NCBI GenBank assembly: GCA_016183365.1
Contig: JACPES010000005.1
Span: 5,895 to 69,894 of the forward strand
Direction of reading: 5' to 3'
Length of the DNA stretch: 64,000 nucleotides
DNA from: Candidatus Collierbacteria bacterium
GTDB lineage: Bacteria > Patescibacteriota > Microgenomatia > UBA1400 > JACPES01
In this document: positions 9,594 to 44,184 of the stretch, piece after piece
How the letters are laid out: every line of letters begins with the position of its first letter
Numbering within the stretch: the first letter of the stretch is position 1
The notes under the pieces: generated by a model
The model's input: only the letters and a program-made list of their open reading frames with translations
What the model was told of the DNA's origin: nothing
Databases searched by the model: none
Program-made: the position numbers and the translations under genes

Positions 9594-11210
9594 ATGAAAA
9601 CCAAGTGGGCAATTCTAATATTAATTTTGGCCGGACTTATTGCTTACGGCAATACTTTAAAAAATGGCTTATTTTGGGACGATGATGAGTTTATTACCAG
9701 AAACGCCTACATCCGGTCTTTCCGCTATCTGCCGCAATGGTTCAGCCAACCGCTGACCGCCGGGGCCGGAGTAAATTCCAACTACTACTGGCCGCTACTG
9801 CAATTATCTTTTGCGGTTGATTACAAACTTTGGGGGTTGTGGCCGGCGGGGTATCACTTTGAGAATTTGCTATGGCATACGGCCGCAGCAATTCTTTTGT
9901 ATTTTTTCCTAAAAGAATTGCTGCAGAAATTCAGTATTCAGCATTCAGTATTCAGTATTGCATCGCTAATCGCTTTCGCGACATCTTTGCTCTGGCTCGT
10001 TCACCCTGCCCAAGTCGAAGCCGTGGCGTACGCTAACTCCCGCGGCGATTCGATGGCGACAGTATTCATTTTGCTGTCGCTGATTTTGTGGATGAGAAAC
10101 AAAATTAAAGGCAGCGCCATAGCTTTCATCTTGGCTTTACTCTCTAAAGAATTCGCCATCATTACCCCGGGACTTATGACCCTGATAAGTTTCGTAAACT
10201 TAACAAATGAGAAGTTTACTGTAAAGGAGACTCCTCGATGTACGTCAAGGAGTCTCCTTATTATGTTTATAATTGCCACTATTTATATTATCCTCCGCCT
10301 CACCGTCCTTAACTTTCAAAACACCCTCAATTTCTACGGTATTGATACGGCCAAAGTTGACCGCAGCCAGCCATTGGCCGTCTACGCCACTTCCCTGCCG
10401 ACGCGGCTAATGACATTTCTAAAAGTTTTACCTATCTATGGGAGCATCCTTATCTGGCCGAATGATTTGCATATGGAGAGAACGGTAAAAATTGCAACAA
10501 TTGCCGCAGATAAAACGGTAATTATAGTCGCGACAGTTATAATTGTTACATTGTTAAATTGCTACATTGCTATCAAAAGAAAAAGGCTTCTCCTGCCTTT
10601 CGCGGTCGGTTGGTTTATGATTTCCATTCTCACCGTCTCCGGCCTGATCCCCATCTCCCAAATCCTGGCGGAACATTTTCTTTATCTACCCAGTATTGGT
10701 TTCTTCCTGCTGGTATCTTGGCTTATCGTTTCTACTATCACCACAACCATAAAATCTAAAAAATGGCAGAGAATCTCATTGCTCATTGTTTTCTGCTCAT
10801 TGCTCATTCCTCTATTGTTCAAAACCATCCGCCAAAACCGGATTTGGCGCGACCCGATTACTTTTTACGAGTACACTCTGTCGCGAACCGTCCCGACAGT
10901 TAGGATTTATAACAATCTGGCTATGGCCTATGCCGATGCCGGAAAACATCAAAAAGCAATTAACAATTACCAATTAGCAATTGAGCTTGGCGACGTTTAC
11001 CCCAATCCTCATTACAACATGGGAAATACGTTAATAGAAATGGGCAAAATCGAAGAAGCGGAAAGAGAGTACAAACGAGCTTTAGAGATTGATCCAAATT
11101 TCCACTATGCTACGTTGAAGTTGGGGCAGATATATATTGATCGGGGAAAAATTGAGGATGCCAAAAAACTGGTCTGTCCGTTCTTCCCCGCCCAACTCCT
11201 ATGCTTGTAA
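9594..11210 (+). CDS. TMTC-like membrane protein: GT-C glycosyltransferase domain (DUF1736-like) with C-terminal TPR repeats
   Basis: N-terminal LFWDDDEF motif and multiple TM helices. C-terminal TPR-like repeats (YNNLAMAYADAGKHQKAINNYQLAIEL..., YNMGNTLIEMGKIEEAEREYKRALEIDPN). Confidence 0.6.
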   Translation: MKTKWAILILILAGLIAYGNTLKNGLFWDDDEFITRNAYIRSFRYLPQWFSQPLTAGAGVNSNYYWPLLQLSFAVDYKLWGLWPAGYHFENLLWHTAAAILLYFFLKELLQKFSIQHSVFSIASLIAFATSLLWLVHPAQVEAVAYANSRGDSMATVFILLSLILWMRNKIKGSAIAFILALLSKEFAIITPGLMTLISFVNLTNEKFTVKETPRCTSRSLLIMFIIATIYIILRLTVLNFQNTLNFYGIDTAKVDRSQPLAVYATSLPTRLMTFLKVLPIYGSILIWPNDLHMERTVKIATIAADKTVIIVATVIIVTLLNCYIAIKRKRLLLPFAVGWFMISILTVSGLIPISQILAEHFLYLPSIGFFLLVSWLIVSTITTTIKSKKWQRISLLIVFCSLLIPLLFKTIRQNRIWRDPITFYEYTLSRTVPTVRIYNNLAMAYADAGKHQKAINNYQLAIELGDVYPNPHYNMGNTLIEMGKIEEAEREYKRALEIDPNFHYATLKLGQIYIDRGKIEDAKKLVCPFFPAQLLCL

Positions 11211-11297
11211 GGTATCTGATACTTTACACATAGCCCAACTTTCTTAATGTATCTTTATGATTTGGGCAGGAGCCCATCGGCCTTTGGTCGAAAAACC

Positions 11298-11825
11298 CTA
11301 TCGATGTCCCAGTGTGTAAAGTGTGTCTAAGTGATTAAATCCAATATTCTGCGGTAGTTTTTTGAAGAATTTAATCTCGGCTGTGTCATCGGCAGGCTTG
11401 GAAGGCCAGGCCTTTCCCGGAAAGGCCTGGCCTTTTTGATCTGGTTTGATGGTGCATCGATATACTAAGTCGACTACGTGACCGCGCGGATCACCGGTTA
11501 GATCGTCAAATGCTTCGGCCAACTTCACATTCTCAACTTTTATCCCCAATTCTTCCTTTGCCACCCGCTTAACGCAATTCATTAACGCTTCGCCTTTCAA
11601 AACAAAACTCCCCGGCAAATGCCAGTAGCCGGCAAACGGCAGCCTTTTGCGTTTGGTCAGCAATACTGCTTTGCTGTTAAGTTTCGCAAACTTCACATTA
11701 GCGGAAGTTTGCGAAACTTCTATATCTTGCTCAATCAGGAGATTCACGGCCACCCGCGGCGCGTATTTAAAACTTCTAAGAAACGTTTGAAAGGGAAGTT
11801 TCTTGGGATTCATATCAATAATCAA
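11298..11825 (-). CDS. NUDIX hydrolase
   Basis: Nudix box GEALMNCVKRVAKEELG (Gx5Ex7REUxEExGU). Carries two in-frame palindromic repeat insertions. Confidence 0.7.
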   Translation of the reverse strand: MIIDMNPKKLPFQTFLRSFKYAPRVAVNLLIEQDIEVSQTSANVKFAKLNSKAVLLTKRKRLPFAGYWHLPGSFVLKGEALMNCVKRVAKEELGIKVENVKLAEAFDDLTGDPRGHVVDLVYRCTIKPDQKGQAFPGKAWPSKPADDTAEIKFFKKLPQNIGFNHLDTLYTLGHR

Positions 11826-12459
11826 GACCCATAACGGCTTTACGGCCAGAATCGAACGGATGTTTGATATTTTTCATCTCCGTTACCAGTTCGGCCAAAT
11901 CAATCAACTGTTTCGGCGCGTTTCTGCCGGTCAAAATAATATGCGTCTGCCCGCGTTTAGAAATTAGATCAATTAAGTCAATCAGATCAATTAATTTATC
12001 ATTGACAGCGTTGATGGCTTCGTCGAGGATTAAAAGAAATAAATGGTTGGGATGGCTTAAATGGTTAAAAGATTTTGTAGCCCTTGTAGCCATTTTGATC
12101 ATTTTTCCGCTTAATAATTCTCTCGTTAATTCCAGCGCTTCTCCCGCCGCTTTCCGGTGTTCATTTGCGCTTGCATGATCCGTCGGCAATTTATAAAATC
12201 CCAGCCCCATTGGATAAATTTCAAAGCTCCCGATTTCCCTTCTTGTGCTTTTTTGTGCTTTTTTGTGCTTTTTTGTGCTTGCCAGCATTTCCGGCAAATT
12301 ATGCTCGCCGATCCTCCATCGTTTCTCCTTATACCATTGGATCATCGCCACCCGCTTCCCCTGCCCCACCGCTCTCATCGCCACCCCAAGCGCTGCACTC
12401 GTTTTCCCCTTTCCATTCCCAGTAAAAATATAAACCAATCCGATGGCATTATCTTTCAT
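11815..12459 (-). CDS. cobA: cob(I)yrinic acid a,c-diamide / cob(I)alamin adenosyltransferase (CobA/BtuR family)
   Basis: P-loop FTGNGKGKTSAALG and ILDE motif. Contains in-frame low-complexity insertions from tandem repeats (KKHKKAQKS, LIDLIDLIDLI, NHLSHPNH). Confidence 0.65.
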   Translation of the reverse strand: MKDNAIGLVYIFTGNGKGKTSAALGVAMRAVGQGKRVAMIQWYKEKRWRIGEHNLPEMLASTKKHKKAQKSTRREIGSFEIYPMGLGFYKLPTDHASANEHRKAAGEALELTRELLSGKMIKMATRATKSFNHLSHPNHLFLLILDEAINAVNDKLIDLIDLIDLISKRGQTHIILTGRNAPKQLIDLAELVTEMKNIKHPFDSGRKAVMGLDY

Positions 12460-12528
12460 TCCCTTATCTTAACACTCGGAAAAGTTATTTTTTATCGTCG
12501 TCTTCCCCGCATCCGCAAGTAGAACACA

Positions 12529-13245
12529 TTATAACCACCCCCCTCCGATTATTAATCCTACAATATAGGCGGCCGCAGCCGCAGTCCCACCGATCAGTAG
12601 CATTTCAATCCCTGACTTGAACCAGTTTTTACCGGTAATCCAGGATCTGGCTGAGCCGACTGAAAATAAAGCCAGAGCCGTAGCCAATATGGCGGCGTAA
12701 AATTTATTAATTGAAAAGTTGAAAACATACGGAATTAATGGCAAAAATCCCGCTGCCACAAAAGCTATAAAGGTGGCAAAAGCGTGACTAATCGGAAAAG
12801 ATTTTTGGGCGGGGATAATTCCCAACTCCCAAACCATCATTTCGTCCACCCAAACCCGTTTTTTTGAAGTGATAATTTTTTCCCATTCGGAAATTCTATC
12901 CGCCGGAATTCCCCTTTTAACGGCTATATTTCTGATTTCCTCCCTCTCTTTTTCCGGAATCTCTCCAATCTCTTTTTCTTCTATCGTCAGGCTATTTTTT
13001 TCAAAATCCGCCTGGCTTTTCGAGCCTAAGTAACTGCCCAAGGCCATGGCTAATCCGTCAGCCAACATGTTGGCTAGCCCCAAAATAATTACTACCGATG
13101 ATCCCATCCCGGCTCCGGCCGCACCGGCTGCCACCGCGAAAGTCGTTATCAGTCCGTCGTTGGCGGAAAACACCACGTCCTTAATATAATTTCCGCCTCT
13201 GGTTATATGAAGCTCTCCCTCGGAATTCCGTTTTAAATTGATCAT
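12529..13245 (-). CDS. VIT1/CCC1 family iron/manganese transporter
   Basis: DVVFSANDGLITTFAVAAGAAGA motif and a C-terminal TM bundle typical of the VIT family. Confidence 0.65.
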   Translation of the reverse strand: MINLKRNSEGELHITRGGNYIKDVVFSANDGLITTFAVAAGAAGAGMGSSVVIILGLANMLADGLAMALGSYLGSKSQADFEKNSLTIEEKEIGEIPEKEREEIRNIAVKRGIPADRISEWEKIITSKKRVWVDEMMVWELGIIPAQKSFPISHAFATFIAFVAAGFLPLIPYVFNFSINKFYAAILATALALFSVGSARSWITGKNWFKSGIEMLLIGGTAAAAAYIVGLIIGGGWL

Positions 13246-13461
13246 GGGAATAATCTATCATTTTCCGCCTTCGCTTGCCATTCGCCTTTAGCAGAACTAT
13301 CCGTTCACGGCTCCTCACTGACGCTTCCCGCTCGGCTTTTCAGTACTATTCGTACACGCCTCGTGGAGCGCGTCTTGTGTGGGGCAGGCATGGCGCGCTA
13401 TCCGGCGGATTTGTTGCTCCTGCTGATTTTTCTTCCAGAAAAATCAGGGATCAACGAAAAT

Positions 13462-13497
13462 AATTAACGCATAATTAACGCATAATTAACGCAAGGG
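13462..13497. repeat. 3x tandem 11-bp repeat (ATAATTAACGC) in the leader of the VIT transporter gene
   Basis: ataattaacgcataattaacgcataattaacgc read directly. It lies in a 369-bp intergenic leader with several hairpins. Confidence 0.8.
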
Positions 13498-13614
13498 GAT
13501 TTTTAAGGCTAAAATACCGCCCCAGCGCCCATCCCAGTAGTACGTTGCTTGCTCCCCCCGATTTAATCGGGACGTCGCAAGGGCGCGACTACGGGACTTC
13601 GCTAGTTTGAATTT

Positions 13615-16170
13615 TTATAACGAACATTTTGAGTATCCACAAGAGTAACAAGTGCTGCACCCACTCTCGGAAGTCATTGCCGCTCCGCATTCCGGACAAT
13701 GGCCGTCGGCCAAATCCTCGGTGATCCGCCGTCTTTCAACCTGATATGCCCTTTGGGACAACGGCGTAATCTTCATCTGACTTTGCATCAGGCGTTGAGA
13801 TTGTTGATTGTTTTTCTCATCTTTCACATCCGCGGCAGTTTTTAATATTTGATTTTCTCTTGATCCGTCGCGATAGACGGTGATGCCTTTGCATCCAAGT
13901 TTCCAAGCGAGTAAATAAGCTTTTTCTACGTCTTTGACTGTGGCGGCACGGGAAAAATTAATGGTCTTGCTGACAGCGTTGTCAGTATATTTTTGAAACG
14001 CGGCCTGCATTTTAACGTGCCAGTCGGGAGAGATTTGGCGGGCGGTGCGGAAGATAGAAGATAAAATAGTCGAATGGTTAAGAGTGTTAAGAGTGTTAGG
14101 ATTGTTATCTACCCGATAACCATCTTTACCATCTCCACCATCTTGCCATCTTTCTATCTCTTTCTTCGCTTTTTCATAATACTTATTCGTATACCTCAAC
14201 CCTTCTTTCTCCACCACGTTTTTTGTATATTCCAAAGCAAAGTATGGTTCTATCCCCGATGAACAACCGGCAATCATGGAGATCGTCCCTGTCGGGGCGA
14301 TAGTTGTTATCGCCACGTTACGCACTTTTCGTCTGCGGCCAAACGGATTCTTGACGCTATTGAAATACGACTGTTTCCAGAGGGGGAATTCCGCCTTTTC
14401 TTTGGATAACTTCTCGCTCTCGTCCCAACTGATTTGCTGAATAAATTTCATGATCGATTCAGCTAATTTTATTCCTTCATCGCTGTCATAGCTTACGCCT
14501 AATTTAACCAACATATCCGCCCAGCCCATCACCCCAAGACCAATCCGCCGGAGTTTATGTGCCATATCGGCAATCTGTGGAATGGGATAGGTTGAGGCAT
14601 CTATGCCGTCGTCAAGAAAGCGGACCGCGGTGCGGATAACCTCTTCAAGACGGGACCGGTTAATATTGTCCAGAACACTCTGAAAACTCTGAAAGCCAGA
14701 CTGTCGGATAATCGGAGAATCGGAATGCCAGATTTTCTGGCTTTCCGGACCCCCGAGTTTTCCGAGTTTTCCGGAATCTTCCCAGAATGGTTTAATCACA
14801 AACTTCGCCAGATTTATGCTACCAAGGTTGCAAACGTCAAAAGGAAACAGAGGCTGTTCACCACATACATTTGTCGCATCTATCCGCCATTTTTTGATTA
14901 GAGGGTTATATTTATTGATAGTATCCAGATAAATCATCCCCGGGTCTCCGGTTAAGTGGGCTAAATTGATCATCTCATTCCATAGCCTCCGGGCCGAAAT
15001 TTTTTGGACCGTTGAGTCGTCGCGAGGATTAACCAATCCCCAGTCGGAATTTTTTTCTACCGCACTCATGAATCTATCAAAAGCGCCGACAGAAATATTG
15101 AAATTGCTAATTTCTCCGTCAACGGATTTGGCGCGGATAAATTCAAAAATATCCGGATGGTCAACGTTTAGGATCCCCATATTGGCGCCGCGGTGTTCGC
15201 CGCCCTGCATCACAATTTGGGTTTCGGCGTCAAACGCTTTCATAAAATTAATCGGACCGGAAGATAAGCCTCCGGAACGGACCGTATCGCCGCGGGGACG
15301 CAAATGAGAAAAATTAAAACCGGTTCCGCCGCCCATTTGATGGATCAGCGCCGCCCATTTGACGGCGTCGAAAATCTTCTCGATTGAATCCTCAACCGGT
15401 AAAACAAAACAATTGGCCAAAGATCCGTTCTGCTTATTTCCTGCCCCCCGGAAATAACACCCGGCCGGAACAAATTCAAAAAAGGTCATAATTTCCAGGT
15501 ACTTGTCCCACCAGTTATGTCTGGAAAGGCCAGGCCTTTTCAAAAAAGGCCTGGCCTTTTTTGATATCTTTTGTTCTACTTCGGCTTTCTCTGTTACAAC
15601 CACAGCGTCTGCGACGCGCCTCATTGCCTCCATGGGTGTTTCGATCACATTCCCCTCTTTATCTTTCCACAAATATCGTTTGGCCATGGCGGCATAGGCG
15701 TTATCCGACATACCAAGGCGAGAAGTGTCTGATAATTGAGAAGTACCAGATACTTCTCGTTGGGCTGCGCGCCGGTTCCGATAAAGAATGTAGGCCTGGG
15801 CCGCATCTTGGTGTCCGGCGGCCAGCAACACCTGTTCGACGATATCCTGAATTTCCTCGACTGTCCACTGATTATGACCGTTGGAACGAATCAGGGTATC
15901 CTCGACGATTTTGGCGAAGCGCTCCGCCTCTTTCCACAACGAAGATTGTTTGTCGGCTTTTTGTCGGGGAACTTCAGTCTCGGCGGCCCGACGGGCAATT
16001 TCGTCAACTCCGGTGATTTGGGAGAATTTTTTTCTTACTTGGGAAACCGCCCACAGCGACTGCCAAGCTGCCATGGTAATTTTGCCGCGGTCGTACTTTT
16101 GTTTCCGGCCGTCGCGCTTGAGGATGGTGTAAATTGGCCTATTGGTTTCTCCGGGTTTTTTATTTGACAT
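13615..16170 (-). CDS. nrdJ: class II (adenosylcobalamin-dependent) ribonucleotide reductase with N-terminal ATP-cone
   Basis: ATP-cone start IYTILKRDGRKQKYDRGKI; RNR core motifs (SLANCFVLP, ATNVCGEQ); C-terminal zinc ribbon CPECGAAMTSESGCSTCYSCGYSKC. Confidence 0.85.
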   Translation of the reverse strand: MSNKKPGETNRPIYTILKRDGRKQKYDRGKITMAAWQSLWAVSQVRKKFSQITGVDEIARRAAETEVPRQKADKQSSLWKEAERFAKIVEDTLIRSNGHNQWTVEEIQDIVEQVLLAAGHQDAAQAYILYRNRRAAQREVSGTSQLSDTSRLGMSDNAYAAMAKRYLWKDKEGNVIETPMEAMRRVADAVVVTEKAEVEQKISKKARPFLKRPGLSRHNWWDKYLEIMTFFEFVPAGCYFRGAGNKQNGSLANCFVLPVEDSIEKIFDAVKWAALIHQMGGGTGFNFSHLRPRGDTVRSGGLSSGPINFMKAFDAETQIVMQGGEHRGANMGILNVDHPDIFEFIRAKSVDGEISNFNISVGAFDRFMSAVEKNSDWGLVNPRDDSTVQKISARRLWNEMINLAHLTGDPGMIYLDTINKYNPLIKKWRIDATNVCGEQPLFPFDVCNLGSINLAKFVIKPFWEDSGKLGKLGGPESQKIWHSDSPIIRQSGFQSFQSVLDNINRSRLEEVIRTAVRFLDDGIDASTYPIPQIADMAHKLRRIGLGVMGWADMLVKLGVSYDSDEGIKLAESIMKFIQQISWDESEKLSKEKAEFPLWKQSYFNSVKNPFGRRRKVRNVAITTIAPTGTISMIAGCSSGIEPYFALEYTKNVVEKEGLRYTNKYYEKAKKEIERWQDGGDGKDGYRVDNNPNTLNTLNHSTILSSIFRTARQISPDWHVKMQAAFQKYTDNAVSKTINFSRAATVKDVEKAYLLAWKLGCKGITVYRDGSRENQILKTAADVKDEKNNQQSQRLMQSQMKITPLSQRAYQVERRRITEDLADGHCPECGAAMTSESGCSTCYSCGYSKCSL
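14671..14790. repeat. ~120-bp palindromic TIR element, in-frame within nrdJ-A
   Basis: CAGAACACTCTGAAAACTC...TTTCCGAGTTTTCCGGAA; same family as the copies in nrdJ-B, nrdJ-C, the two PBP genes and the 60530..62266 membrane-protein gene. Confidence 0.75.
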
Positions 16171-16198
16171 TATCTAGATAGAGCATATAATAAATTTA

Positions 16199-16945
16199 TT
16201 AACTCGTTTGGGATGGACGCTTGCGTCGGTTCCGACGGGTTTTTTCTTGCCAAAATCTTGTCTTGATCTGTTTCCATTTGATCACTCTTTCGGAAACAAT
16301 TTTAGTTCTAATTATTTGATAGAAAACGTTATCCTTTCCTGTCTGCGCCCATAACACGCTCCCGGCCACCATATCAGCAACATTAACCAGCGGTTCCGTT
16401 TGACTATCAACATGAACCGGCGATAACGGCTCGTCCAATAGACTAGTTAATACTTGATTAAATTTGTCTTGATCTATGGTTCTTTGAAAATGGCGGTCGA
16501 GAACGACGTGTTTAATCTGATGTTGATAGTATAAAAGACAATCTTCAAGCAGCAACCAGCAAAGAAGGGCAAAATTCTCCGGAGAATCGGTTATGCTTTG
16601 ATTTTGTTTTTCAACGATTAAAACAAAAATCTCTACGTCTTGAGCAGCCAATTTTTCCAGAAATTTTTTCTTAGTTCTGTCGCCGGCTCGATAAAACTTG
16701 ATTTCCGGCGGATTACTCTTGGCGTAATGTTTCCTGATAATTTTAGTCATGGATTTAAGTCGCTGGGGTGTTTGAGTTGATATGGCAGCTACAACCACAG
16801 CCGGATCCCGGGGATCGGGTAAAGTCCCGGATTCATCCAGATAAACAGTTCTGCCTACTCGCCTGTATTCAACCGCGGTGGGAAGCCGAGGAAATTTCCG
16901 CCCGTCGCGCTTGAGGATGATGGAAATTAACTTTTGGGATTTCAT
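16199..16945 (-). CDS. DUF3800-like protein whose first ~20 codons duplicate the nrdJ ATP-cone start
   Basis: YLDESG motif near the N-terminus (DUF3800 hallmark, recalled from memory). The N-terminus ISIILKRDGRKF and ~35 bp of DNA are near-identical to the nrdJ-A 5' end. Confidence 0.4.
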   Translation of the reverse strand: MKSQKLISIILKRDGRKFPRLPTAVEYRRVGRTVYLDESGTLPDPRDPAVVVAAISTQTPQRLKSMTKIIRKHYAKSNPPEIKFYRAGDRTKKKFLEKLAAQDVEIFVLIVEKQNQSITDSPENFALLCWLLLEDCLLYYQHQIKHVVLDRHFQRTIDQDKFNQVLTSLLDEPLSPVHVDSQTEPLVNVADMVAGSVLWAQTGKDNVFYQIIRTKIVSERVIKWKQIKTRFWQEKTRRNRRKRPSQTS

Positions 16946-17238: not shown

Positions 17239-19302
17239 TTAGACGCTGCATTTTGACCAACCGCAGCTATGGCAAGTGACACAACCATTTTCGGCAATTA
17301 CCGCAGCTCCACACTCCGGACAGACGGCGGCGGGACCGGAGCCGGGACGCAAAGGCAAATGTTGAATGGCAGAATTTTCATTCGTCATTCGTAATTGGTC
17401 ATTCGTCATTGTATCCTTAGCAAGATTCAAAACCTGATCTTTTTTTGAGCCGTCTCTATAAATAGTAATCCCCTTGCAGCCGAGTTTCCAGGCCAGAATG
17501 TAGGCTTTTTCTACATCTTCAACAGTAGTATTATGGGGGAAGTTAATGGTTTTGCTGATTGAGTTATCAAAATGTTTCTGCCAGGCGGCCTGAATCTTAA
17601 CGTGCCACGATGGAGAAATCTCATGGGTGGTAACAAATATCTTATAAAACCAGCCGGGCAAACCTTCGATGGATTTTAATCCGTATTCCGCGACGTGTTT
17701 CAGAACACTCGGAAAACTCGGAGTTTCAGATAAATCAGAAAGTCGGAGAATCGGAAAATCAGAACTTCTGATCTTCTGATTTTCTGACTTTCTGACATTC
17801 CGGCTTTCCGAGTTTTCAGAGTTTTCCGAAATGACTCTCTTTAGTTCTTCTTCAAACACCGGATCGACCATATATATTTCCTTCGTCGGCCTATTTTTTC
17901 TATCGTCTTCAAAGAATGTTCGTCTTTTTGTGACCAACGAAAAAATCGGCTCTATCCCCGAAGTAGTGTCGGCGAGCATCGCCGTAGTCCCAGTGGGGGC
18001 AATCATGGTAGTAGCGCAGTTTCGCATCGGATGCTTGTCAAAATAAATACTCCTGTCCCAGTTGCCGAAGTTGCCGCGGACTTTGGCCAGTTTCATACTC
18101 TCATTTTGGGCAGTTTCCTGGATGAACTTTGCCAATTTTTCCGAAAGCTCCTCCGCTTGACTAGAGTTGTACGGAATACCTAATTTAACCAACATATGGG
18201 AAAATCCCATCACGCCTAATCCAATGCGGCGGTTGCCGTTTTTGACCATCTGCTCAATTTCGGGAATAGCATAGGTATTAACTTCAATCATGTCGTCGAG
18301 AAACCGGACCCCGAGACGGACGCTCTTTTCTAAGTCTTCCCAGTCAACTCCATTCATTGTTTCCTGTTTCTTGCTTCTTGCTTCTTTTATATGATTCTGC
18401 AAGCAAATACTTGTCAAATTGCAACTCTCGTAGGGCAAAAGTCCGATTTCGCCGCAGGGATTAGTCGCTTCTATCCGTCCAATTTGGGGAGTGGGGTTGT
18501 CGCGGTTAAAAGTATCCAAAAACATCAAACCCGGATCGCCGGTTTGATGGGCGTGGTCAACGATCATTTTGAATAATTTCCGGGCTTTTATCTTTCTCAC
18601 CGGCTCCCCGGTTCTGGGGTTAATTAAATTCCACATCTTATCCGCCTGAACCGCTTTCATAAATTCGTCGGTTACTCCAACGGAAATATTAAAGTTCTTG
18701 ATAGTGCCATCCTCGTCTTTAAGGCGAATAAAGTCTTCAATGTCGGGATGGTCGGCGTTTAAAATCCCGATGTTGGCGCCTTGGCGTTTGGCGCCCTGAA
18801 GAATTTTTGACAGGGCGGCGGAATAGGCGGCCAGAAAGTCCACCGGACCGGAGGCGGCGTTGGGGACATTTTTGACTTTGTCGCCGCGGGGACGGATGCG
18901 GGAAAAATTAAAGCCGGTGCCGCCGTTATTTTTATGGACGACGGCAGCGTCACCCAAGGTTTTGAAAATCGACTGAATGTTGTCTTCGACCGGAAGAACG
19001 AAACAGCTGCTCAATTGGCCGGTGCCGCCGGGGTTACCGGCCTCAAACATGGCCTTGCCGGCGCATACGAATTTGAAATTCACCATCCGGTCGTAAAAGG
19101 CGACGGCAATCTCGGCAACTTTCCCGTTTCCGCCATTCCAATTGACTTCGGCTTTAGCCATATGTCTGGCGACCCGCCACAGCATCTCTCCCGGAGTTTC
19201 GATGACTTTTCCGGACATATCGGTGCGGAGATAACGCTTCTGGGAAATCTTTATGGCAGTTGGTGATAGTTTTGGTTCGATGATAGTCATATGTATAGAC
19301 AA
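17239..19302 (-). CDS. nrdJ: class II ribonucleotide reductase paralog (no ATP-cone)
   Basis: SSCFVLP, ATNPCGEIGL, C-terminal CPECGAAVIAENGCVTCHSCGWSKC. Carries a ~135-bp in-frame palindromic element. Confidence 0.85.
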   Translation of the reverse strand: MSIHMTIIEPKLSPTAIKISQKRYLRTDMSGKVIETPGEMLWRVARHMAKAEVNWNGGNGKVAEIAVAFYDRMVNFKFVCAGKAMFEAGNPGGTGQLSSCFVLPVEDNIQSIFKTLGDAAVVHKNNGGTGFNFSRIRPRGDKVKNVPNAASGPVDFLAAYSAALSKILQGAKRQGANIGILNADHPDIEDFIRLKDEDGTIKNFNISVGVTDEFMKAVQADKMWNLINPRTGEPVRKIKARKLFKMIVDHAHQTGDPGLMFLDTFNRDNPTPQIGRIEATNPCGEIGLLPYESCNLTSICLQNHIKEARSKKQETMNGVDWEDLEKSVRLGVRFLDDMIEVNTYAIPEIEQMVKNGNRRIGLGVMGFSHMLVKLGIPYNSSQAEELSEKLAKFIQETAQNESMKLAKVRGNFGNWDRSIYFDKHPMRNCATTMIAPTGTTAMLADTTSGIEPIFSLVTKRRTFFEDDRKNRPTKEIYMVDPVFEEELKRVISENSENSESRNVRKSENQKIRSSDFPILRLSDLSETPSFPSVLKHVAEYGLKSIEGLPGWFYKIFVTTHEISPSWHVKIQAAWQKHFDNSISKTINFPHNTTVEDVEKAYILAWKLGCKGITIYRDGSKKDQVLNLAKDTMTNDQLRMTNENSAIQHLPLRPGSGPAAVCPECGAAVIAENGCVTCHSCGWSKCSV
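17701..17835. repeat. ~135-bp palindromic TIR element, in-frame within nrdJ-B
   Basis: CAGAACACTCGGAAAACTCGGAG...TTTCCGAGTTTTCAGAGTTTTCCGAA; translated as ENSENSESRNVRKSENQKIRSSDFPILRLSDLSETPSFPSVL. Confidence 0.8.
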
Positions 19303-19332: not shown

Positions 19333-21405
19333 TCATACCGAGCATTTACTCCATCCGCATTCCTGACAAGTTGCGCATCCATCCATCAACGTCAGTTCTC
19401 CCCTGCATTCCGGACACACTTCGTCAGGATTTCCTTTAACCGTTAACCTTTGACCTTTGACCTTCCCCACATTGAGCACTTGCTCTCTCCGGCAGCCGTC
19501 GCGATAAACCGTAATTCCTTTACATCCGGTTTCGAAAGCTAATAAATAAGCGTTTTTAATATCGTCGACTGTGGCCGAATTGGGCAAATTAATAGTTTTT
19601 GATACCGCCGCATCTGTATATTTTTGCCATGCGGCTTGCATTTTAATATGCCATCTGTAGGGAATTTCCATGGAGACACGGAAGATATCTCTTACTTCTT
19701 GCGGAATTTCTTTAATATTTTGGCAACTGCCGGACACAGAGACTCTCTCCAGAACACTCGGAAAACTTGGAACATCAGATAAATCAGAAGATCGGAGTTT
19801 CAGAGAACCAGAATTTCTGGTCGTCTGATTGTCTGATTTTCTGATTTTCCGGCTTTCAGAGTTTTCAGAGTTTTCTGAAATTACACCAACTGCTTTTGAA
19901 AATTCTTCGTTAACTTCTAGCAAACTCGTCTTCCCCAAATCTAAAATATTTTCCCTTCTGTACGCCAAGGCAAACAACGGTTCTATTCCACTGGAACAAC
20001 CGGCGATTATGGAAATAGTCCCGGTCGGGGCGACGGTGTTGACCGTTGAATTACGCATATGAGTGAAACCTTGCTTCTGCCAAACGCTATCTTCGAAAGC
20101 CGGGAAAGAACCACGACTTCTAGCCAGTTCCACCGAGGCGTCGCGGGCAGTATCATGGATAAATTTAGCGGTTTTTTTCGCTAGTTTCAACGCCGCTTCC
20201 GAGTCGTAACGAACCCCCAGTTTAATCAACATGTCCGCCCAGCCCATGACGCCGACGCCGATTTTTCTGGTGGTCAGGGCCATTTTTTTTAATTGGGGAA
20301 TCGGATAGTCGCAGAGGTCGATAACGTTGTCCTGAAAGTGAACCCCGAGACGGACGACCTCTTCTAATCGTTTCCAGTTGATTCTTTCCAGAACACTCGG
20401 AAAACTCTGAGAACCAGAGAAATCGGAATATCGGAGGATCGGAGAATCAGACGATCCGGCCTTCTGACTTTCTGATTTTCTGATATTCCGGCTTTCCGAG
20501 TATTCCGAGTTTTCTGAACTTACAAATCTTCCCAGGTTTATATTCCCCAAGTTGCATGACTCATACGGTAATAGGGCTTGTTCGCCACACGGGTTAGTTG
20601 CTTGATATATCCCTAATTTTGGCGTCGGACAATATTTATTCATGACATCTAAAAACACTAATCCCGGGTCGCCGACTTTCCAGGCCTGGGTGGCGATTAA
20701 ATTCCATAACTCCATCACGTCGATATCTTTTTCGGTGGCGCCGTCGTTGGGGTGAAATAAATGAATAGTCCCCTTTTTGGCTTTGACCTTTTCCATAAAT
20801 TCGTCTGTAGCCCCGACGCTGACGTTAAAATGGTAGAGCGTGGACGGATCTTCTTTGGACATAATAAATTCAACGATGTCCGGGTGATCAACCTTCAATA
20901 CTCCCATCAGGGCGGGGCGGCGGGCGCTGGCCTCGGCGATGGTGGCGGCGGAATAATTAAATAACCGCAGGAAAGAAACGGCGCCGGAACTGATGCCGCC
21001 GGTTGATTCCACCAAAGAACCCCGCGGCCTAAGATTTGTCAGCGGGATTCCAATCCCGCCGCCGGTCCGTAAAATCAGGGCCGCGTTGCGCAGTTGATCA
21101 TAAATATCTTCCAAGGAATCGGATAAAGGCAAAACATAGCAAGCCGAAAATTGTTTATGCTTGCGGCCGGCGTTAAGGAGGACCGAGCCGGAAAGATATT
21201 CCAAATTCGACATGGCCCGATAAAAATCATCGGCGACTTTTTTTATCTCCTGATCCGCTTTATCTCCCTTTACTCTTAGATATTTTTTGTCAGCCGACGC
21301 GATTAAGTTAGCTACCCGTCGGAACATCTGATCAGGGATTTCTTTTGGCAAAAGATAGCCGCGTTTTTTCAAAACTACCAAAGCGTTATCGGATAAATTT
21401 GTCAT
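19333..21405 (-). CDS. nrdJ: class II ribonucleotide reductase paralog (no ATP-cone)
   Basis: SACYVLP, ATNPCGEQAL, C-terminal CPECRGELTLMDGCATCQECGWSKC. Carries two in-frame palindromic elements. Confidence 0.85.
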   Translation of the reverse strand: MTNLSDNALVVLKKRGYLLPKEIPDQMFRRVANLIASADKKYLRVKGDKADQEIKKVADDFYRAMSNLEYLSGSVLLNAGRKHKQFSACYVLPLSDSLEDIYDQLRNAALILRTGGGIGIPLTNLRPRGSLVESTGGISSGAVSFLRLFNYSAATIAEASARRPALMGVLKVDHPDIVEFIMSKEDPSTLYHFNVSVGATDEFMEKVKAKKGTIHLFHPNDGATEKDIDVMELWNLIATQAWKVGDPGLVFLDVMNKYCPTPKLGIYQATNPCGEQALLPYESCNLGNINLGRFVSSENSEYSESRNIRKSESQKAGSSDSPILRYSDFSGSQSFPSVLERINWKRLEEVVRLGVHFQDNVIDLCDYPIPQLKKMALTTRKIGVGVMGWADMLIKLGVRYDSEAALKLAKKTAKFIHDTARDASVELARSRGSFPAFEDSVWQKQGFTHMRNSTVNTVAPTGTISIIAGCSSGIEPLFALAYRRENILDLGKTSLLEVNEEFSKAVGVISENSENSESRKIRKSDNQTTRNSGSLKLRSSDLSDVPSFPSVLERVSVSGSCQNIKEIPQEVRDIFRVSMEIPYRWHIKMQAAWQKYTDAAVSKTINLPNSATVDDIKNAYLLAFETGCKGITVYRDGCRREQVLNVGKVKGQRLTVKGNPDEVCPECRGELTLMDGCATCQECGWSKCSV
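19751..19880. repeat. palindromic TIR element copy 1 in nrdJ-C
   Basis: CCAGAACACTCGGAAAACTTGG...TTTCAGAGTTTTCAGAGTTTTCTGAA. Confidence 0.8.
20391..20520. repeat. palindromic TIR element copy 2 in nrdJ-C
   Basis: CCAGAACACTCGGAAAACTCTGAG...TTTCCGAGTATTCCGAGTTTTCTGAA. Confidence 0.8.
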
Positions 21406-27510: not shown

Positions 27511-27860
27511 GCGTGGACAGGATTTGTTTAAACGTTTCAACCTCTTTCGAAGTGTGGTAATTTCCTGAAATAGTTATTTGATTCTCAAGAGTGAATTGAA
27601 ACCTATAGCGGACAATTTCCATTTTATCAGACCCGTCTCGATATTCATATACGCCCTTAATATTGGTTTCATAATTCTTGCCCAGTATTTTAACCTGCAC
27701 TTTCCCTGTCTCTTGACATTTGCTATTTGCACAAACTGATCCTCCAGCTGTTGAAAAAACCAGATCAGTCCCAATGAACAGAGTTGGCTTATCGTAGTCA
27801 TCAATCGAAAATTTCGATGGAAATATTCTTACCGAATACTCTCTGTAAGAGGGCAGGATT

Positions 27861-27900
27861 AATTTAATATCCAGCGACGATCGTCGCTGGATATTAAATT
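27861..27900. terminator. perfect 40-bp palindrome between convergent genes (probable bidirectional terminator)
   Basis: AATTTAATATCCAGCGACGA|TCGTCGCTGGATATTAAATT followed by ATTTTAAA. Confidence 0.55.
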
Positions 27901-28029
27901 ATTTTAAACACCAGTCAATTTATTATTCTCAAATTTTCCAGACTTCTATCATTTTATTTCATTCAGTCTCAACCTTCCATATCCAATCTACTCTCACTCA
28001 TAATGAAAACTTTTATTCTACAAGCCTAT

Positions 28030-31437: not shown

Positions 31438-31932
31438 CTATATCCGGCAGGAGAGGACGGCGGCCATGGAGGCGGCTAATTGATTTAGGCGGGCGTTGGC
31501 TTCGGGGAGAGTCAAGAAATACCGGTGATGAGGAAAATAATGGAAGGCGAGATTGCGGCTTTGTTTCCAACATTGCCAGAGCTGATCGGACAAATGGGGG
31601 TCGGGGCAGGCGGCCACAATTTGGTCATAGACGTAACCATCATTCTTGAAGCGGGCCGGCAGACTGGGATTTAAGGCCTTGCCGATGCGGAAGTGATCGC
31701 TTTTATACTGATATTCGGTAATAAAGGCATTGGCAAAAAACCATTTCTTTAGGAATCCTTCGTAGGCCTTGGCCATAGGAAAGACGATAAACGAGAAATC
31801 ATGGATTTCTCTAATTTTCAATTTACAATTTTCAACTTTCAATGAGTCAAAAAGCAAATAAGAGAGATTGACCAGGTCGCGCATGCCTTCGTCGAGAAAT
31901 TGATACCAGGGTTGATGGTTAAAATCCGGCAT
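31438..31932 (-). CDS. hypothetical protein
   Basis: 164-aa ORF, no recognisable motif. Confidence 0.35.
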   Translation of the reverse strand: MPDFNHQPWYQFLDEGMRDLVNLSYLLFDSLKVENCKLKIREIHDFSFIVFPMAKAYEGFLKKWFFANAFITEYQYKSDHFRIGKALNPSLPARFKNDGYVYDQIVAACPDPHLSDQLWQCWKQSRNLAFHYFPHHRYFLTLPEANARLNQLAASMAAVLSCRI

Positions 31933-31941
31933 AGTACTATT

Positions 31942-33066
31942 TTATATATCATGCCAGCGCTGGTGGGAAGCGGCAATGCCAAGAGTTAGCCAGAAGATAA
32001 CTTCTGTGGCAATGGAAGTAATGTTGGTTTGGGAATAGAAAAGGTATAGGATCAGCGGCAGGAAAACGGCAGTACGGCGCGCCAGCCAAACTGCCCGACC
32101 AATGAGAAGAAGATAAATTGCCAATCCGATAACTCCGGTAGTCGTAAAAACTTCAAGGATGACGCCATGAGCTTTGTCCAGATAAATATCCGGCTGGAAC
32201 TTCATCGGCCAGGGATTAGCGTCAAAAGCATAGTCAACGTTAGCCCAGCCCCAGCCAAATAGCGGCCGCCGGAGCGCTCCATTTAAGACGCTGCGGATAA
32301 TTCTTTCCCGGCTTTCGGGGACAAACTGGCGACTCGGGTACGGCCGGGACCAGGCGGCTTGCCAAAAGTAAACAGCGGCAAATATCATCATGATTCCCAA
32401 CGCAGACACGATGGCTAATTGAATCTGTCGAGACATTTTTTTGACGGCCAGATAAGTGAAAAATATTATGATACCGAGAAGTCCGCCCCAAGATTTAGTT
32501 ATGGCGATAGCCGCAATCGGAAATATGACGGCAATTTTGGACCATCTGTTGCGAAGCATTTCCCAGACGAACGGCAGGGTTACCGTCAGGTAACCGGCAA
32601 GAAAGTTGGGCTGGCCGAAAGCAGTCCGGCCGAAAATAGCTAATATACCGGCTGCCAACGAACCGGTGGCAATGATTTGAAAAGTAAATTTTTGCCATGA
32701 TGATCGCCAAAATAGGGCGGTGAAAAGAAATAGTCCGATTAAATGAGCTAAAGTGAAAAGGCCGTCGCCGCGATAGTAATTCCCCCAGATGCTTTTGAGG
32801 AGATCGGCGCCTAAAATTGAGGCGACTACTGCCCAAAGAAAAAAAGCGATCACCAATCCTAGAAGTTTGCCGTCAATTTTAGAGTTAATAGCGGCCGGAT
32901 TTTTAGCCAATAGGTTGATTAGGGCTGCCAAACCCAGAAGTTCCAGCCAACGACTGATAAACCAGACGCGAGGGATTTCGTAAGGGATTTTCGCCCACGG
33001 CCAAAAAATAAAAGGAGAGGCGGCCAAACCAATGAATAAAACAAATTTGACTTTTTTGGGTTTCAT
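31942..33066 (-). CDS. O-antigen ligase/polymerase-like (Wzy_C) membrane protein
   Basis: About 10 TM helices with a large periplasmic loop pattern typical of WaaL/O-antigen ligase family proteins. Confidence 0.5.
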   Translation of the reverse strand: MKPKKVKFVLFIGLAASPFIFWPWAKIPYEIPRVWFISRWLELLGLAALINLLAKNPAAINSKIDGKLLGLVIAFFLWAVVASILGADLLKSIWGNYYRGDGLFTLAHLIGLFLFTALFWRSSWQKFTFQIIATGSLAAGILAIFGRTAFGQPNFLAGYLTVTLPFVWEMLRNRWSKIAVIFPIAAIAITKSWGGLLGIIIFFTYLAVKKMSRQIQLAIVSALGIMMIFAAVYFWQAAWSRPYPSRQFVPESRERIIRSVLNGALRRPLFGWGWANVDYAFDANPWPMKFQPDIYLDKAHGVILEVFTTTGVIGLAIYLLLIGRAVWLARRTAVFLPLILYLFYSQTNITSIATEVIFWLTLGIAASHQRWHDI

Positions 33067-33083
33067 ATGTATAATGCCGCCCT

Positions 33084-33671
33084 ATGACAAACGGTATGAA
33101 ATACTATAGCGTTTTGATAATGGCTTTGACAAGTTTAGCTATGCCCGGATGGTTTAAAAGATTGCGTTCCCAGCTTCCCCATTGGAACGCTATGAATAAT
33201 TCCCAAAAAGTGGCATTGATATCATTTGTTTCGCTATCACTGCTGCTACCGATTATTACATTGGCGACATTGGAAGGCACACGGCTGGCATCCCGGGCCG
33301 ATATGCCAGTAACTCCTCCGGTAACGCCGACCCCGACACCCACCCCTATTCCTAATCCACGACGTTGTCTTGCATCAAATTTTGATCTTCCTAATATTAT
33401 GAAAACTAATAATCGCTATGATGGATATTTCTATATAATCAATGGAACCGACGAAACTATCTGGTACAACATCGTATTTAAATCAAATTTAGGCTCCTTT
33501 GGTCCGATTAGCGCTCAAGTCATGGGATTACCACGAAAGAAAACTGCTGTTGGGTTTGCGATTTACAAGGTTGACTCTTCTAAAGCTCTTGGAACGATAA
33601 CTGCGACTACTACTGTTGAAGGAGATTCTACCCCCTGTGACAGTGAAGTACACAGAGTCAAGGTGAAATAA
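33084..33671 (+). CDS. secreted hypothetical protein with PT-rich linker
   Basis: Signal/TM at the N-terminus, then a PVTPPVTPTPTPTPIP linker and a beta-rich C-terminal domain. Confidence 0.4.
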   Translation: MTNGMKYYSVLIMALTSLAMPGWFKRLRSQLPHWNAMNNSQKVALISFVSLSLLLPIITLATLEGTRLASRADMPVTPPVTPTPTPTPIPNPRRCLASNFDLPNIMKTNNRYDGYFYIINGTDETIWYNIVFKSNLGSFGPISAQVMGLPRKKTAVGFAIYKVDSSKALGTITATTTVEGDSTPCDSEVHRVKVK

Positions 33672-33829
33672 ACTCACTGATAAATTCTTTTTTATTTATG
33701 ATAATTTCTTGAGGCGATTTGCTCTTCTATGTTATTCCAACCGCACTAATCCGTTTTCCTTCCGCTTGCTTATTAAATAATTCATAAAACCGCTAAATTT
33801 GTTTATATATTTTATATATAATATTCCAC

Positions 33830-36355: not shown

Positions 36356-36788
36356 GCGGGGCGTGGCAATCTAAAGTCATTGCGAGCGACCGGAGGGAGC
36401 GCGGCAATCTAAAAATTTGATGCAAGAACAGTCCTTCTGTGTTTATTTGATGAGCAATCCCGGCAGAACGGTACTTTATACCGGTGTAACCCGAAACTTG
36501 ATAAAACGGGTATGGCAACATAAAGAGAAAGTCGCTGATGGTTTTACCAAGAAATACAATGTTACCGATATGGTCTATTACGAAATCCTTGATTCACCGA
36601 TTGAAGCAATCGAACGCGAAAAGCAAATTAAGAGTTGGTCGAGAAAAAGGAAAAATCGCTTGGTAGAAGCGGAAAATTCTTCATGGAAAGATTTATACGA
36701 TGAAATCGTATCATGGTGAGTAATGCAAGAGGGATGACGCTAAAGCGTCAGATTGCCACGCCCCGCCGGTAGCGGGGCTCGCAATGAC
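36344..36788. mobile_element. GIY-YIG gene cassette bounded by ~39-bp terminal inverted repeats
   Basis: Left GTCATTGCGAGCCCCGCCGTAGGCGGGGCGTGGCAATCT (36344-36382, plus a second partial tandem copy 36377-36410). Right AGATTGCCACGCCCCGCCGGTAGCGGGGCTCGCAATGAC (36750-36788) is its reverse complement. Confidence 0.65.
36417..36719 (+). CDS. GIY-YIG nuclease family protein (YhbQ/Slx1-like small form)
   Basis: FCVYLMSNPGRTVLYTGVTRNLIKRVWQHKE is a GIY-YIG motif; 100 aa. Confidence 0.7.
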   Translation: MMQEQSFCVYLMSNPGRTVLYTGVTRNLIKRVWQHKEKVADGFTKKYNVTDMVYYEILDSPIEAIEREKQIKSWSRKRKNRLVEAENSSWKDLYDEIVSW

Positions 36789-36797
36789 GATACTTCT

Positions 36798-37094
36798 CTA
36801 GGCTTTTTCAACCAATTCATAGGCCTTTTCTTCTGTCAGCTTATCTAAATTAATTCCCCGCTTTTTGGCCCAGCGGCGGCCGACTTTTTTGCCTGCTGCC
36901 ATCATTCGGTCAAACCGCAGCCTCCACATTTTCTCTTTTGCCTGCTCGGTTTCCAGAATTCGTCTATAAGACAGCAGTACCGCTTCCGGGACGCTATCTC
37001 GAACAATTACTACCGAAGTATCCTGTTGGGAAACATCGGCCACTAATCTGCTCAAGTTATTTCTGGCATCGGTGATACTGACTATCTGTTGCAT
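36798..37094 (-). CDS. Phd/YefM-family antitoxin (no cognate toxin adjacent)
   Basis: N-terminal ISITDARNNLSRLVADV...VVIVRDSVPEAVLLSY matches the Phd/YefM pattern. Confidence 0.55.
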   Translation of the reverse strand: MQQIVSITDARNNLSRLVADVSQQDTSVVIVRDSVPEAVLLSYRRILETEQAKEKMWRLRFDRMMAAGKKVGRRWAKKRGINLDKLTEEKAYELVEKA

Positions 37095-37292
37095 ACAACG
37101 TACATTGTAAACGACAATAATAATTTGTCAAGAAGATAAATTTCGGAATATATCGTAACGAAGCCAAATCCCTACGAGTCGGTGATTGACGTGACCGGAC
37201 TGGGCCGATAAGCAATCGGCACCATTTCGGCGGGTGTCAAATTTTTAATTTACTTCTTGTGAGTTAACCGGCCAACTTTTATAATCCTGCCC

Positions 37293-39665: not shown

Positions 39666-39838
39666 ATTATTCACCCCCCTTAAGGTAAAAAAATAAAGAC
39701 ACCAAAAGAGTAACTATAAATAAAAACAATCCGGCCCACCTTGGACCGGAGGTTTCTTTAGCTCTTTTTCTTCTATTACTGGCCCGATCCGACAACTTAA
39801 GCTCCACCTGTTGTCTCCTGACCAGCTTTAAATTATTA

Positions 39839-40543: not shown

Positions 40544-40601
40544 AAAGGGAATTTTACCACGGATTTATTAACCCCGGTGTAAAGCATCAGATACTTTACA
40601 C

Positions 40602-42544: not shown

Positions 42545-42566
42545 GAGTCTATGCTATCAAAATAAA

Positions 42567-43004: not shown

Positions 43005-43239
43005 TATTTTTTACGTTTTTCCATCCGCTTTTCGACTTGGGGACACTGCCTATCACCGTTTGGGCTATCAATTTAAGATCGTTCCTTTCCACGTCTTCAA
43101 TCGCCATTCTCAGAACCGCAGCTCGTCGAAGATATTCGCTGAGACTTTCGTTCGATATGGTACTCCGCGTCTCTACCAACTTCTTTAACGCCGGTGACAA
43201 AGATATCTGGGTTCTGGTGGGGTAAATCGCCGTATTCAT
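42952..43239 (-). CDS. putative RHH-type antitoxin (VapB-like)
   Basis: 95-aa ORF upstream of, and overlapping, the PIN gene; SLSEYLRRAAVLRM is RHH-like. Confidence 0.45.
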   Translation of the reverse strand: MNTAIYPTRTQISLSPALKKLVETRSTISNESLSEYLRRAAVLRMAIEDVERNDLKLIAQTVIGSVPKSKSGWKNVKNIGEWQRKLRKDEDRHRP

Positions 43240-43354
43240 AATGATGTAATGTTAATACATCATTATATTGAAGTCAAGACACATTATTGGCGTTGTTTTA
43301 GTAAAATAAAACAAACTGCAATCGCTCTGATATTTCATCCCAATTAATCATTTT

Positions 43355-44170: not shown

Positions 44171-44184
44171 TTGTTTTTTGTTTT

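Follow-up and report, generated by a model that had tools for sequence, protein, structure and literature searches.

REP (repetitive extragenic palindromic) sequences, the paired form known as the REPIN, and the associated REP-associated tyrosine transposases (RAYTs) have been described in Gammaproteobacteria and others (the reference set used here comprises Bertels & Rainey PMC3116915 and PMC3337134, bioRxiv 10.1101/2021.07.10.451892, and Di Nocera et al. PMC3733652). A REP contains a palindrome of ~14 bp that is imperfect at its centre; in a REPIN, two inverted REPs with asymmetric centres flank a variable spacer in either a common or a rare configuration, and singlets represent decaying remnants. 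REPINs are ~100 bp long, typically number in the hundreds per genome, and are almost exclusively extragenic (bioRxiv 10.1101/2021.07.10.451892, PMC3337134). A transposase gene flanked by REPs has been called a "REPtron", and the E. coli RAYT requires a GTAG/CGTC tag for cleavage (PMC3733652). In-frame REPs and REP dimers within genes are also known, including different REPs at about the same recB site in related Xanthomonas (PMC3733652), and the Rickettsia palindromic elements (RPEs) RPE-1, RPE-4, and RPE-6 are in-frame palindromic repeats (PMC3733652; mentioned in PMC1779305). The present analysis concerns a 64,000-nucleotide stretch of a Candidatus Collierbacteria genome (contig JACPES010000005.1, positions 5,895 to 69,894; hereafter the window) in which the 13-nt palindrome AAGGCCWGGCCTT occurs as three inverted pairs, or doublets, each located within a protein-coding gene. 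With a probability of roughly 75%, we take these sites to be copies of a REP/REPIN-type hairpin repeat family that was probably copied by a RAYT-like transposase.

The three doublets contain six units, all of which are perfect. When up to two mismatches with AAGGCCWGGCCTT are allowed, the window yields six matches, all exact, against 1.42 expected, and none of 100 shuffles reaches six; the core, GGCCWGGCC, is matched six times against 0.46 expected. Solo or degenerate copies (up to two mismatches) are absent from the window, where the units are present only as inverted pairs. Each unit has the structure AAGGCC-W-GGCCTT, in which the central W is asymmetric and marks the orientation, and the unit lacks a stop codon in all six frames. 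At each of the sites, designated A, B, and C, the 16-nt arms of the doublet are 100% complementary, including the central W, and in single-stranded (ss) DNA the arms are predicted to fold into stems of 15-17 bp (-18.4 to -19.1 kcal/mol, z of about -6 relative to shuffles). Doublet A (11402 to 11434, 33 bp) lies within a NUDIX gene and is composed of units at 11402-11414 and 11422-11434 in the A..T configuration, giving a 15 bp stem with a 3-nt loop. Doublet B (15525 to 15559, 35 bp), which lies within NrdJ-A, consists of units at 15526-15538 (AAGGCCAGGCCTT) and 15546-15558 (AAGGCCTGGCCTT), has a 16 bp stem and a 3-nt loop, and is also A..T. Doublet C (41925 to 41979, 55 bp), within a PfkB-family kinase gene, has the rare T..A configuration, with a T at the centre of the unit at 41925-41937 and an A at that of the unit at 41967-41979, and 16-nt arms that run out to ...GTC/GAC... 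Its spacer measures 29 nt between the 13-nt units, or 23 nt between the 16-nt arms, and contains AATCCAGACAAG twice in tandem, as a 12-nt duplication (41946-41957 and 41958-41969). Since six independent Logan assemblies are 100% identical to the window from 31564 to 48302, site C included, this site is not an artefact of assembly. A preliminary description of this DNA had reported a family of paired palindromic units in nrdJ-A and the NUDIX gene. The sequences that it quoted are indeed there, although the first is offset by one base; two perfect 13-nt units are present at each site, and the existence of a family is confirmed. However, it missed doublet C and gave no name to the type of element, and its stem-loop of about 40 bp was an overestimate, as sites A and B form hairpins of 33-35 nt.

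All three doublets are in frame, those of NrdJ-A and NUDIX within intact genes. The product of NrdJ-A (13615 to 16170, minus strand) is a class II (B12) ribonucleotide reductase (RNR) of 851 aa with Pfam Ribonuc_red_lgC and ATP-cone matches, whose nearest relatives, at 66-68% identity, are from Collierbacteria and Microgenomates. The NUDIX hydrolase (11298 to 11825, minus strand; Pfam NUDIX) matches an NCBI protein of Candidatus Collierbacteria at 100% identity (P0121; names of this type are protein labels, while those of the type L031 are locus labels), and the PfkB-family carbohydrate kinase of 326 aa (41564 to 42544, minus strand) is identical to another (P0204). The doublets are situated mid-gene, at about residues 130 (NUDIX), 205 (NrdJ-A), and 190 (PfkB), and are read through as 11-20 extra residues. 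The minus-strand translation of doublet B is KKARPFLKRPGLS, and that of doublet A is KGQAFPGKAWP within a wider NUDIX stretch that reads QKGQAFPGKAWPSKPAD; the frames and translations given previously for these two sites are exact. Doublet C reads KGLALSGFLSGLFGQGQAL, encoding PfkB residues ~187-207. The inserts are probably translated, and the insert-spanning peptides KGQAFPGK, ARPFLK, and GLALSGFLSGLFGQGQAL are predicted.

Ortholog alignments place every doublet within an indel-rich segment. Doublet B falls in such a part of the N-terminal all-alpha region of NrdJ-A, just ahead of the conserved FEFVPAG motif. The NUDIX and PfkB copies are common to Collierbacteria-level relatives only, and distant NrdJ, NUDIX, and PfkB orthologs have no insert at the doublet positions; thus, a coding feature conserved in unrelated taxa, which the preliminary description had named as the observation that would count against it, was not found. 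It had also asked for a check of whether the sites correspond to loops, and AlphaFold2 predictions for two of the proteins give a positive answer. In NUDIX, the insert is modelled in a loop between strands 117-126 and 148-154, where the predicted local distance difference test (pLDDT) block is 53; in PfkB, residues 192-202, between helices 181-193 and 203-209, have a pLDDT below 50. According to these models, the inserts of the window sit in tolerant, low-confidence surface loops.

The family extends well beyond the window. When one genome from each GTDB species was scanned for exact matches to two AAGGCCWGGCCTT units no more than 30 nt apart, 115 doublets were found in 105 stretches of GTDB genomes. 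The identical 13-mer is present at more than 100 unrelated loci over ~35 genomes. Nearly all of the carriers are metagenome-assembled genomes (MAGs) of Patescibacteria, a few MAGs bearing other titles (titles as recorded), and they include Collier-, Gottesman-, Davies-, Woyke-, and Curtissbacteria, Paceibacteria, Jorgensenbacteria, and Saccharibacteria, with 6-18 exact doublets per ~1-Mb MAG. The two centres are complementary in 107 of the 115 doublets (A..T in 87, T..A in 20, the configuration being the same on either strand). The units are exact; the spacers, of many different sequences, measure 0-30 nt, their lengths peaking at 7, 12, and 20-23, and the flanks of the doublets are not conserved. 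In Gottesmanbacteria and in WY3 and WY5, two related MAGs, extragenic copies with long spacers lie 5-30 nt past the ends of open reading frames (ORFs). JACRNH01, a Collierbacteria MAG, has 18 copies, of which ~14-15 fall within real genes, among them genes for FolD (twice), a P-type ATPase, GT4 glycosyltransferases, Fpg, and a methyltransferase. This intragenic fraction is about that of random placement at the coding density of the genome (~87%); Collierbacteria copies show no avoidance of coding sequence. Variants of the unit also recur: a AAGGTCAGGCCTT..AAGGCCTGACCTT doublet is found seven times across WY3 and WY5, the core GGCCSGGCC four times in JACRNH01, and the core GGACWGTCC three times on a single 7-kb contig (L109). 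Matched changes in both arms thus recur at several loci, and therefore whole hairpins have been copied between loci. Among 2.9 million viral contigs none matches the doublet, in keeping with elements that are chromosomal and passed on vertically; a phage vector, which had been entertained, was set aside on this result.

A candidate for the copying enzyme is present beside some members of the family. A motif scan of the ~8-kb family loci revealed Y1/HUH transposase genes in L031, L038, L068, and L072, and a subsequent tblastn search added homologs in L078 and L105. These transposases have a YIHxNP-type tyrosine region and match the RAYT model better than IS200 proper. The four proteins that were tested (from L031, L038, L068, and L072) exceed the gathering score of Pfam Y1_Tnp (PF01797), and their best NCBIfam match is NF047646, the REP-associated tyrosine transposase. 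At four complete genes (L031, L038, L072, and L078), AAGGCCWGGCCTT units or doublets are found on both sides at 10-72 nt, and these flanking units are the only ones in each 8-kb block. If units were placed at random, both ends of the gene would have one at 100 nt or less with a probability of 0.014-0.029 at each locus, and the values multiply to ~2e-7. The combination of element anatomy and transposase linkage matches the REPIN/RAYT, or REPtron, architecture. The transposase would be the mobiliser of the element, and one presumably is, or was, present in the source genome. Two of the transposase genes themselves contain family sequences: the RAYT-like gene at L078 6410-7102 holds an in-frame solo unit (KRPQGLALGEV), and the RAYT-like open frame at L031 6819-7424 reads through a full doublet at its C-terminus (3' end).

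The family resembles REPIN/RAYT systems in its two inverted palindromic REPs with asymmetric centres, variable spacer, common and rare configurations, and solo remnants; in the occurrence of several sister families per genome and of extragenic copies just past ORF ends; and in the Y1/HUH gene flanked on both sides by REPs in related MAGs and the absence from viral contigs. Its host is different, being a member of the Patescibacteria, or Candidate Phyla Radiation (CPR), a group to which the literature searched links neither RAYTs nor REPINs. Like the Rickettsia RPEs and intragenic REPs, the present elements lie in frame within the housekeeping genes of a genome that is reduced, add 10-30 residues, are commonly dimers, affect genes of known function, are absent from distant orthologs, occupy tolerant parts of proteins, and can differ between related species at about one and the same site of a gene, as in Xanthomonas recB; the literature on those repeats likewise tends to read them as tolerated selfish DNA. 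However, RPE-1 is 100-150 bp, the CGTC REPs have no dedicated transposase, and both unit and host phylum differ. In particular, the unit of the window, whose host is Candidatus Collierbacteria, is unrelated to the CGTC-tagged sequence of RPE-4 and RPE-6 (PMC3733652). Intragenic copies, a minority among the REPs described previously, are the majority in one lineage here. Intragenic REPs as such have already been described; what differs here is the untagged unit, the small size of the elements, the CPR host, the modest copy number, the lack of coding avoidance in Collierbacteria, and the distant transposases. As for IS200/IS605 elements and their palindrome-associated miniature derivatives, an HUH/Y1 transposase is associated with flanking subterminal hairpins, and single-stranded "peel and paste" chemistry would apply by inference; unlike IS200/IS605, no TnpB partner adjoins the transposase gene at L078, the locus at which the flanking ORFs were listed, and the best match is to the RAYT model. 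The coding palindromes of Nematomorpha mitochondria (PMC6649704) and the hairpin elements of organelles (PMC2800124) are likewise perfect in-frame inverted repeats in compact genomes, but these are up to 284 bp, are eukaryotic, share no 13-nt unit, and have no linked transposase. Finally, the arms could be read as the terminal inverted repeats of a miniature transposable element with inverted repeats (MITE, derived from a DDE transposon). The flanks of singlets and doublets are identical, however, and the linked enzyme is HUH, not DDE. No target-site duplication, a MITE criterion, is visible by inspection at the three window sites or in the family flanks, for which no formal scan was made.

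Several observations weigh against assigning the family to the REPIN/RAYT systems. The elements are 33-55 bp rather than ~100 bp and number tens rather than hundreds per genome; the unit ends in AAGG/CCTT and lacks the GTAG/CGTC of tagged REPs. REPINs are habitually extragenic, while all three copies in the window and ~14-15 of the 18 in JACRNH01 are within genes, the Gottesmanbacteria subfamily being extragenic. The transposases score 30-58 bits against NF047646, below the RAYT cut-off of 80, and a profile made from five sequences finds only a weak match in the PDB, to ISDra2 TnpA (E = 0.014); a PDB search with one RAYT-like protein alone returned no match. By these sequence comparisons, the CPR transposases appear to be a distant clade relative to the curated RAYTs. 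A tblastn search detected no Y1 transposase homolog in the 64-kb window, and none was found in the 112 kb searched of JACRNH01, the closest genome with these elements. Last, no excision or insertion polymorphism is seen among the six Logan assemblies, which are identical over 31564-48302.

The following mechanism would account for these features. The element, two inverted 13-nt REP units and a variable spacer, would fold as a hairpin in ssDNA, and the Y1/HUH REP-associated tyrosine transposase would most likely copy it through this hairpin, by hairpin-specific cleavage and joining. Such ss hairpin chemistry is established biochemically for the E. coli RAYT and the IS200/IS605 enzymes. A copy that landed within a gene would survive only if the added bases were a multiple of three, free of stops, and in a tolerant surface loop; the in-frame survival in loops would thus be due to purifying selection and to the scarcity of intergenic space in a genome that is ~87% coding. 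The resulting peptide would be a by-product of the inserted DNA. Deletion between the two near-identical units would then collapse doublets to solo units, and in other lineages sister REP variants could settle in the same loops again or overwrite what is there.

Comparisons of orthologous sites, using NUDIX, NrdJ, and PfkB ortholog DNA obtained by a metagenome scan and exact-protein look-ups, bear on both this mechanism and the alternatives to it. Close relatives have perfect 15-17 bp hairpins in the same NUDIX, NrdJ, and PfkB loops, built from the AAGGCCWGGCCTT unit or from sister units that follow the pattern AAGG-xy-N-y'x'-CCTT, with the cores GGCCSGGCC, GGACWGTCC, GGTCSGACC, and GGAGWCTCC. 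The element of doublet A is found at orthologous NUDIX codons in L073, L106, and L107, and between the window and L073 or L106 the REP units are identical at 26 of 26 positions vs 72-77% identity for the rest of the gene; the REP units are conserved above the coding background. At the PfkB site, L177 and L178 have a solo unit, while the window, L179, and L182 have a doublet. The indels that separate doublet from singlet are 21, 42, and 42 nt, all multiples of three, and the flanks are identical. The PfkB REPs of the window and L180 differ by six substitutions, all of which keep both levels of palindromy, and some PfkB relatives that are ~80% identical have an unrelated tandem repeat at the same place (L181). 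Because the same loops can hold different units, solos, or tandem repeats, they are hot spots with turnover. Nested hairpins were also noticed, in the NrdJ ortholog of L110 (~2392-2520) and the PfkB ortholog of L182: an outer AAGGTCSGACCTT doublet has a spacer with a further GC-rich palindrome (CCTGCCGGCTGGGCAGG-like), as if an element had inserted within the loop of another.

The conservation of the NUDIX units, the persistence of a perfect hairpin in these loops in most Collierbacteria-level relatives even when its sequence differs, and the preservation of palindromy among variants are what would be expected if the hairpin were a functional, cis-acting DNA or RNA structure (for the binding of a dimeric protein, a translational pause, or mRNA processing) that is selected in place and has spread by recruitment rather than by selfish copying. 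This explanation is unlikely. The host genes are unrelated in function (RNR, NUDIX, kinase, Fpg, FolD, P-type ATPase, glycosyltransferases), and the place of the hairpin within the gene is inconsistent. Some close orthologs manage with a solo unit or with no insert, and others, such as L181, have other families or plain tandem repeats in the same loop. A scan of 11000-16500 against Rfam gave no family above the gathering score, generic hairpin matches being far below it, and the linkage to a transposase gene is a prediction of a mobile family. It should be added that REPINs themselves have been argued to be beneficial, so that function and a REPIN identity are not exclusive.

A second alternative dispenses with a mobile element and transposase altogether: the palindromes could have arisen and been perfected, locally, repeatedly, and de novo, where fragile loop-coding DNA undergoes replication template switching, that is, by quasi-palindrome correction or fold-back priming. 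The window is full of other in-frame palindromes of unrelated sequence, palindromic units make up a doublet that is palindromic in turn, the outcome expected of iterated fold-back, the spacer at site C has been enlarged by the 12-nt tandem duplication, and singlet and doublet forms interconvert at one site (PfkB). However, copying of this kind is local, and leaves unexplained the identical 13-mer at more than 100 unrelated loci in ~35 genomes, the recurrence of identical paired changes at different loci within a genome, and the flanking of Y1 transposase genes. As the origin of the family it is therefore quite improbable. Within a REPIN-type family, template switching and unit-to-unit deletion probably help to keep the arms perfect and drive the turnover between singlets and doublets.

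Selection of a conserved peptide for a role in the protein, such as a KGQA/RPGL-type linker, is very improbable. In its favour, the inserts keep the reading frame, and several NUDIX orthologs share the peptide KGQAF.GKAWP. But the unit is read as GGC-CAG-GCC in NUDIX and PfkB and as G-GCC-AGG-CC in NrdJ, and the family copies within genes use all three frames, giving the unrelated peptides KGQAF, KARPF, RPGL, KAWP, and KGLAL. Because the units are read in different frames, the conserved object is the DNA and not the peptide. Copies are also found outside genes, and the inserts are low-confidence loops that distant orthologs do without.

CPR bacteria are thought to take up DNA, Neisseria and Haemophilus have uptake sequences that lie within coding regions and form inverted pairs, and the unit contains GGCC, CCWGG, and AGGCCT sites; a DNA uptake signal or restriction-modification-related site enriched genome-wide is nevertheless hardly credible, as the density is low (six units in 64 kb) and the pairs are exclusively inverted, an uptake signal has no need for the complementary centres of 107 of the 115 doublets, and GGCC is mildly under-represented in the window (300 observed vs 397 expected), with CCWGG near expectation.

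Other identities were tried and rejected. The TTTGAT that adjoins sites A and B, which resembles a target of the ISDra2 type, is not conserved over the 115 doublets. Ribosome bypass or an intron-like interruption was considered for frameless copies in WY3/WY5 and Gottesmanbacteria, which proved to be intergenic, just past ORF ends. The 13-7-13 geometry had suggested the core of a tyrosine recombinase site (lox/dif-like), but spacer length varies over 0-30 nt, and a genome with tens of these sites would be scrambled. Nor are the hairpins intrinsic terminators, since copies lie mid-gene and the coding strand has no T-run after the hairpin (CCAGACA follows B, and CCAAGC follows A).

Further palindromes are present in the window. 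Two are probable relatives of the family. At 10224 to 10259, in a TPR protein ORF (9594-11210, plus strand), there is an in-frame doublet of AAGGAG(A/T)CTCCTT, the left copy of which is imperfect; the GGAGWCTCC core, flanked by CA...TG rather than AA...TT, fills the NUDIX loop in L108. At 48746 to 48781, in a phosphoribosyltransferase ORF (48534-49277, minus strand), an in-frame hairpin, AAGATCTAACCTTGCCGT/ACGGAAAGGTTAGATCTT, resembles the AAGGTCTAACCTT..AAGGTTAGACCTT doublets that occur twice in L113. The NUDIX gene contains a second, unrelated palindrome (11679-11719; AAGTTTCGCAAACTTC...GAAGTTTGCGAAACTT), placed by the model in the loop between strands 24-35 and 51-59 (pLDDT 59-73), and NrdJ-A contains a second palindrome as well, a 19-nt imperfect inverted repeat (15719-15759). 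A sister AAGTTTACGAAACTT hairpin is present at other loci.

NrdJ-A is the first of three tandem class II RNR paralogues on the minus strand (13615-16170, 17239-19302, and 19333-21405; Ribonuc_red_lgC, lgN), and the only one with an ATP-cone; each has in-frame palindromic inserts. Elsewhere, the NrdJ homologs P0002 and P0004 carry inteins. A second type of palindrome, probably the first family of the preliminary description, is found at 17735-17800, 19781-19847, 20397-20517, and 35554-35620. Its arms consist of degenerate 8-nt repeats (TCAGAAAA/TCGGAGAA) followed by an inverted copy, and two of the RNR paralogues and a class A penicillin-binding protein carry its inserts in frame, yielding peptides such as SENSESRNVRKSENQKIRSSDFPILRLSD; NrdJ-A has an insert similar to this type (GPESQKIWHSDSPIIRQSGFQSFQS). 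A transketolase gene contains an in-frame AATGGCT/AGCCATT-type palindrome at 44493-44574 (NGYNGLNG...SSHSNHF). Because peptide repeats that closely resemble these (NGYNGEMATMANHSNHS) are present in a RecF-like ORF of JACRNH01 (L051 602-1741), this would be another shared family. Outside long open frames, 27860-27901 and 54427-54460 are perfect zero-spacer palindromes of 42 and 34 nt (TAATTTAATATCCAGCGACGA|TCGTCGCTGGATATTAAATTA and AAAAACTTCAATTATTT|AAATAATTGAAGTTTTT), and a different 13-nt palindromic unit, CCGATT(G/T)AATCGG, is located at 2141-2153, 2182-2194, and 13558-13570, two of these being 41 nt apart.

Logan contigs, which come from independent short-read assemblies of this organism, end at ~44476 (L187), 48282 (L184), and 48302 (L183/L186). 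The L187 break is within tens of bases of the 44493 repeat, and those of L183, L184, and L186 are ~175-200 nt before a repeat at 48477, which suggests that repeats fragment the assemblies of such genomes. Pfam marks on the genes of L183 indicate a small GIY-YIG nuclease-like ORF (~36450-36720), a PhdYeFM-type antitoxin ORF (~36800-37090), and a PIN-domain ORF with a small upstream ORF (~42567-43240), all of them between or beside housekeeping genes.

We tentatively suggest, as a possibility that goes beyond the assignment of the family itself, that coding loops have taken the place of intergenic DNA as the main niche of an active REPIN-RAYT-type system in Collierbacteria and their relatives. 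This system would repeatedly rewrite the same loops of essential enzymes, namely RNR, NUDIX, PfkB, FolD, and Fpg, with the current REP variant of each genome, and the units would be held perfect by the transposase system, not by selection on the protein. If so, the insertions by which CPR proteins are distinguished would have a major and continuing source in hairpin repeats. The searched literature contains no paper with the full 13-nt unit and none on coding palindromes of the CPR. The REP/REPIN-type reading gives these odd in-frame palindromes a testable identity with a candidate transposase and would extend REP-RAYT systems to the Patescibacteria, where they are unreported in that literature. 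In addition, the AAGGCCWGGCCTT doublet offers a short diagnostic motif for locating the associated transposases. For annotators and structure predictors, the family implies that a CPR protein can owe a loop insertion of 10-20 residues to repeat DNA and not to functional sequence. In the bacteria that carry it, compaction of the genome seems to have driven these selfish hairpins into loops on the surface of housekeeping enzymes.

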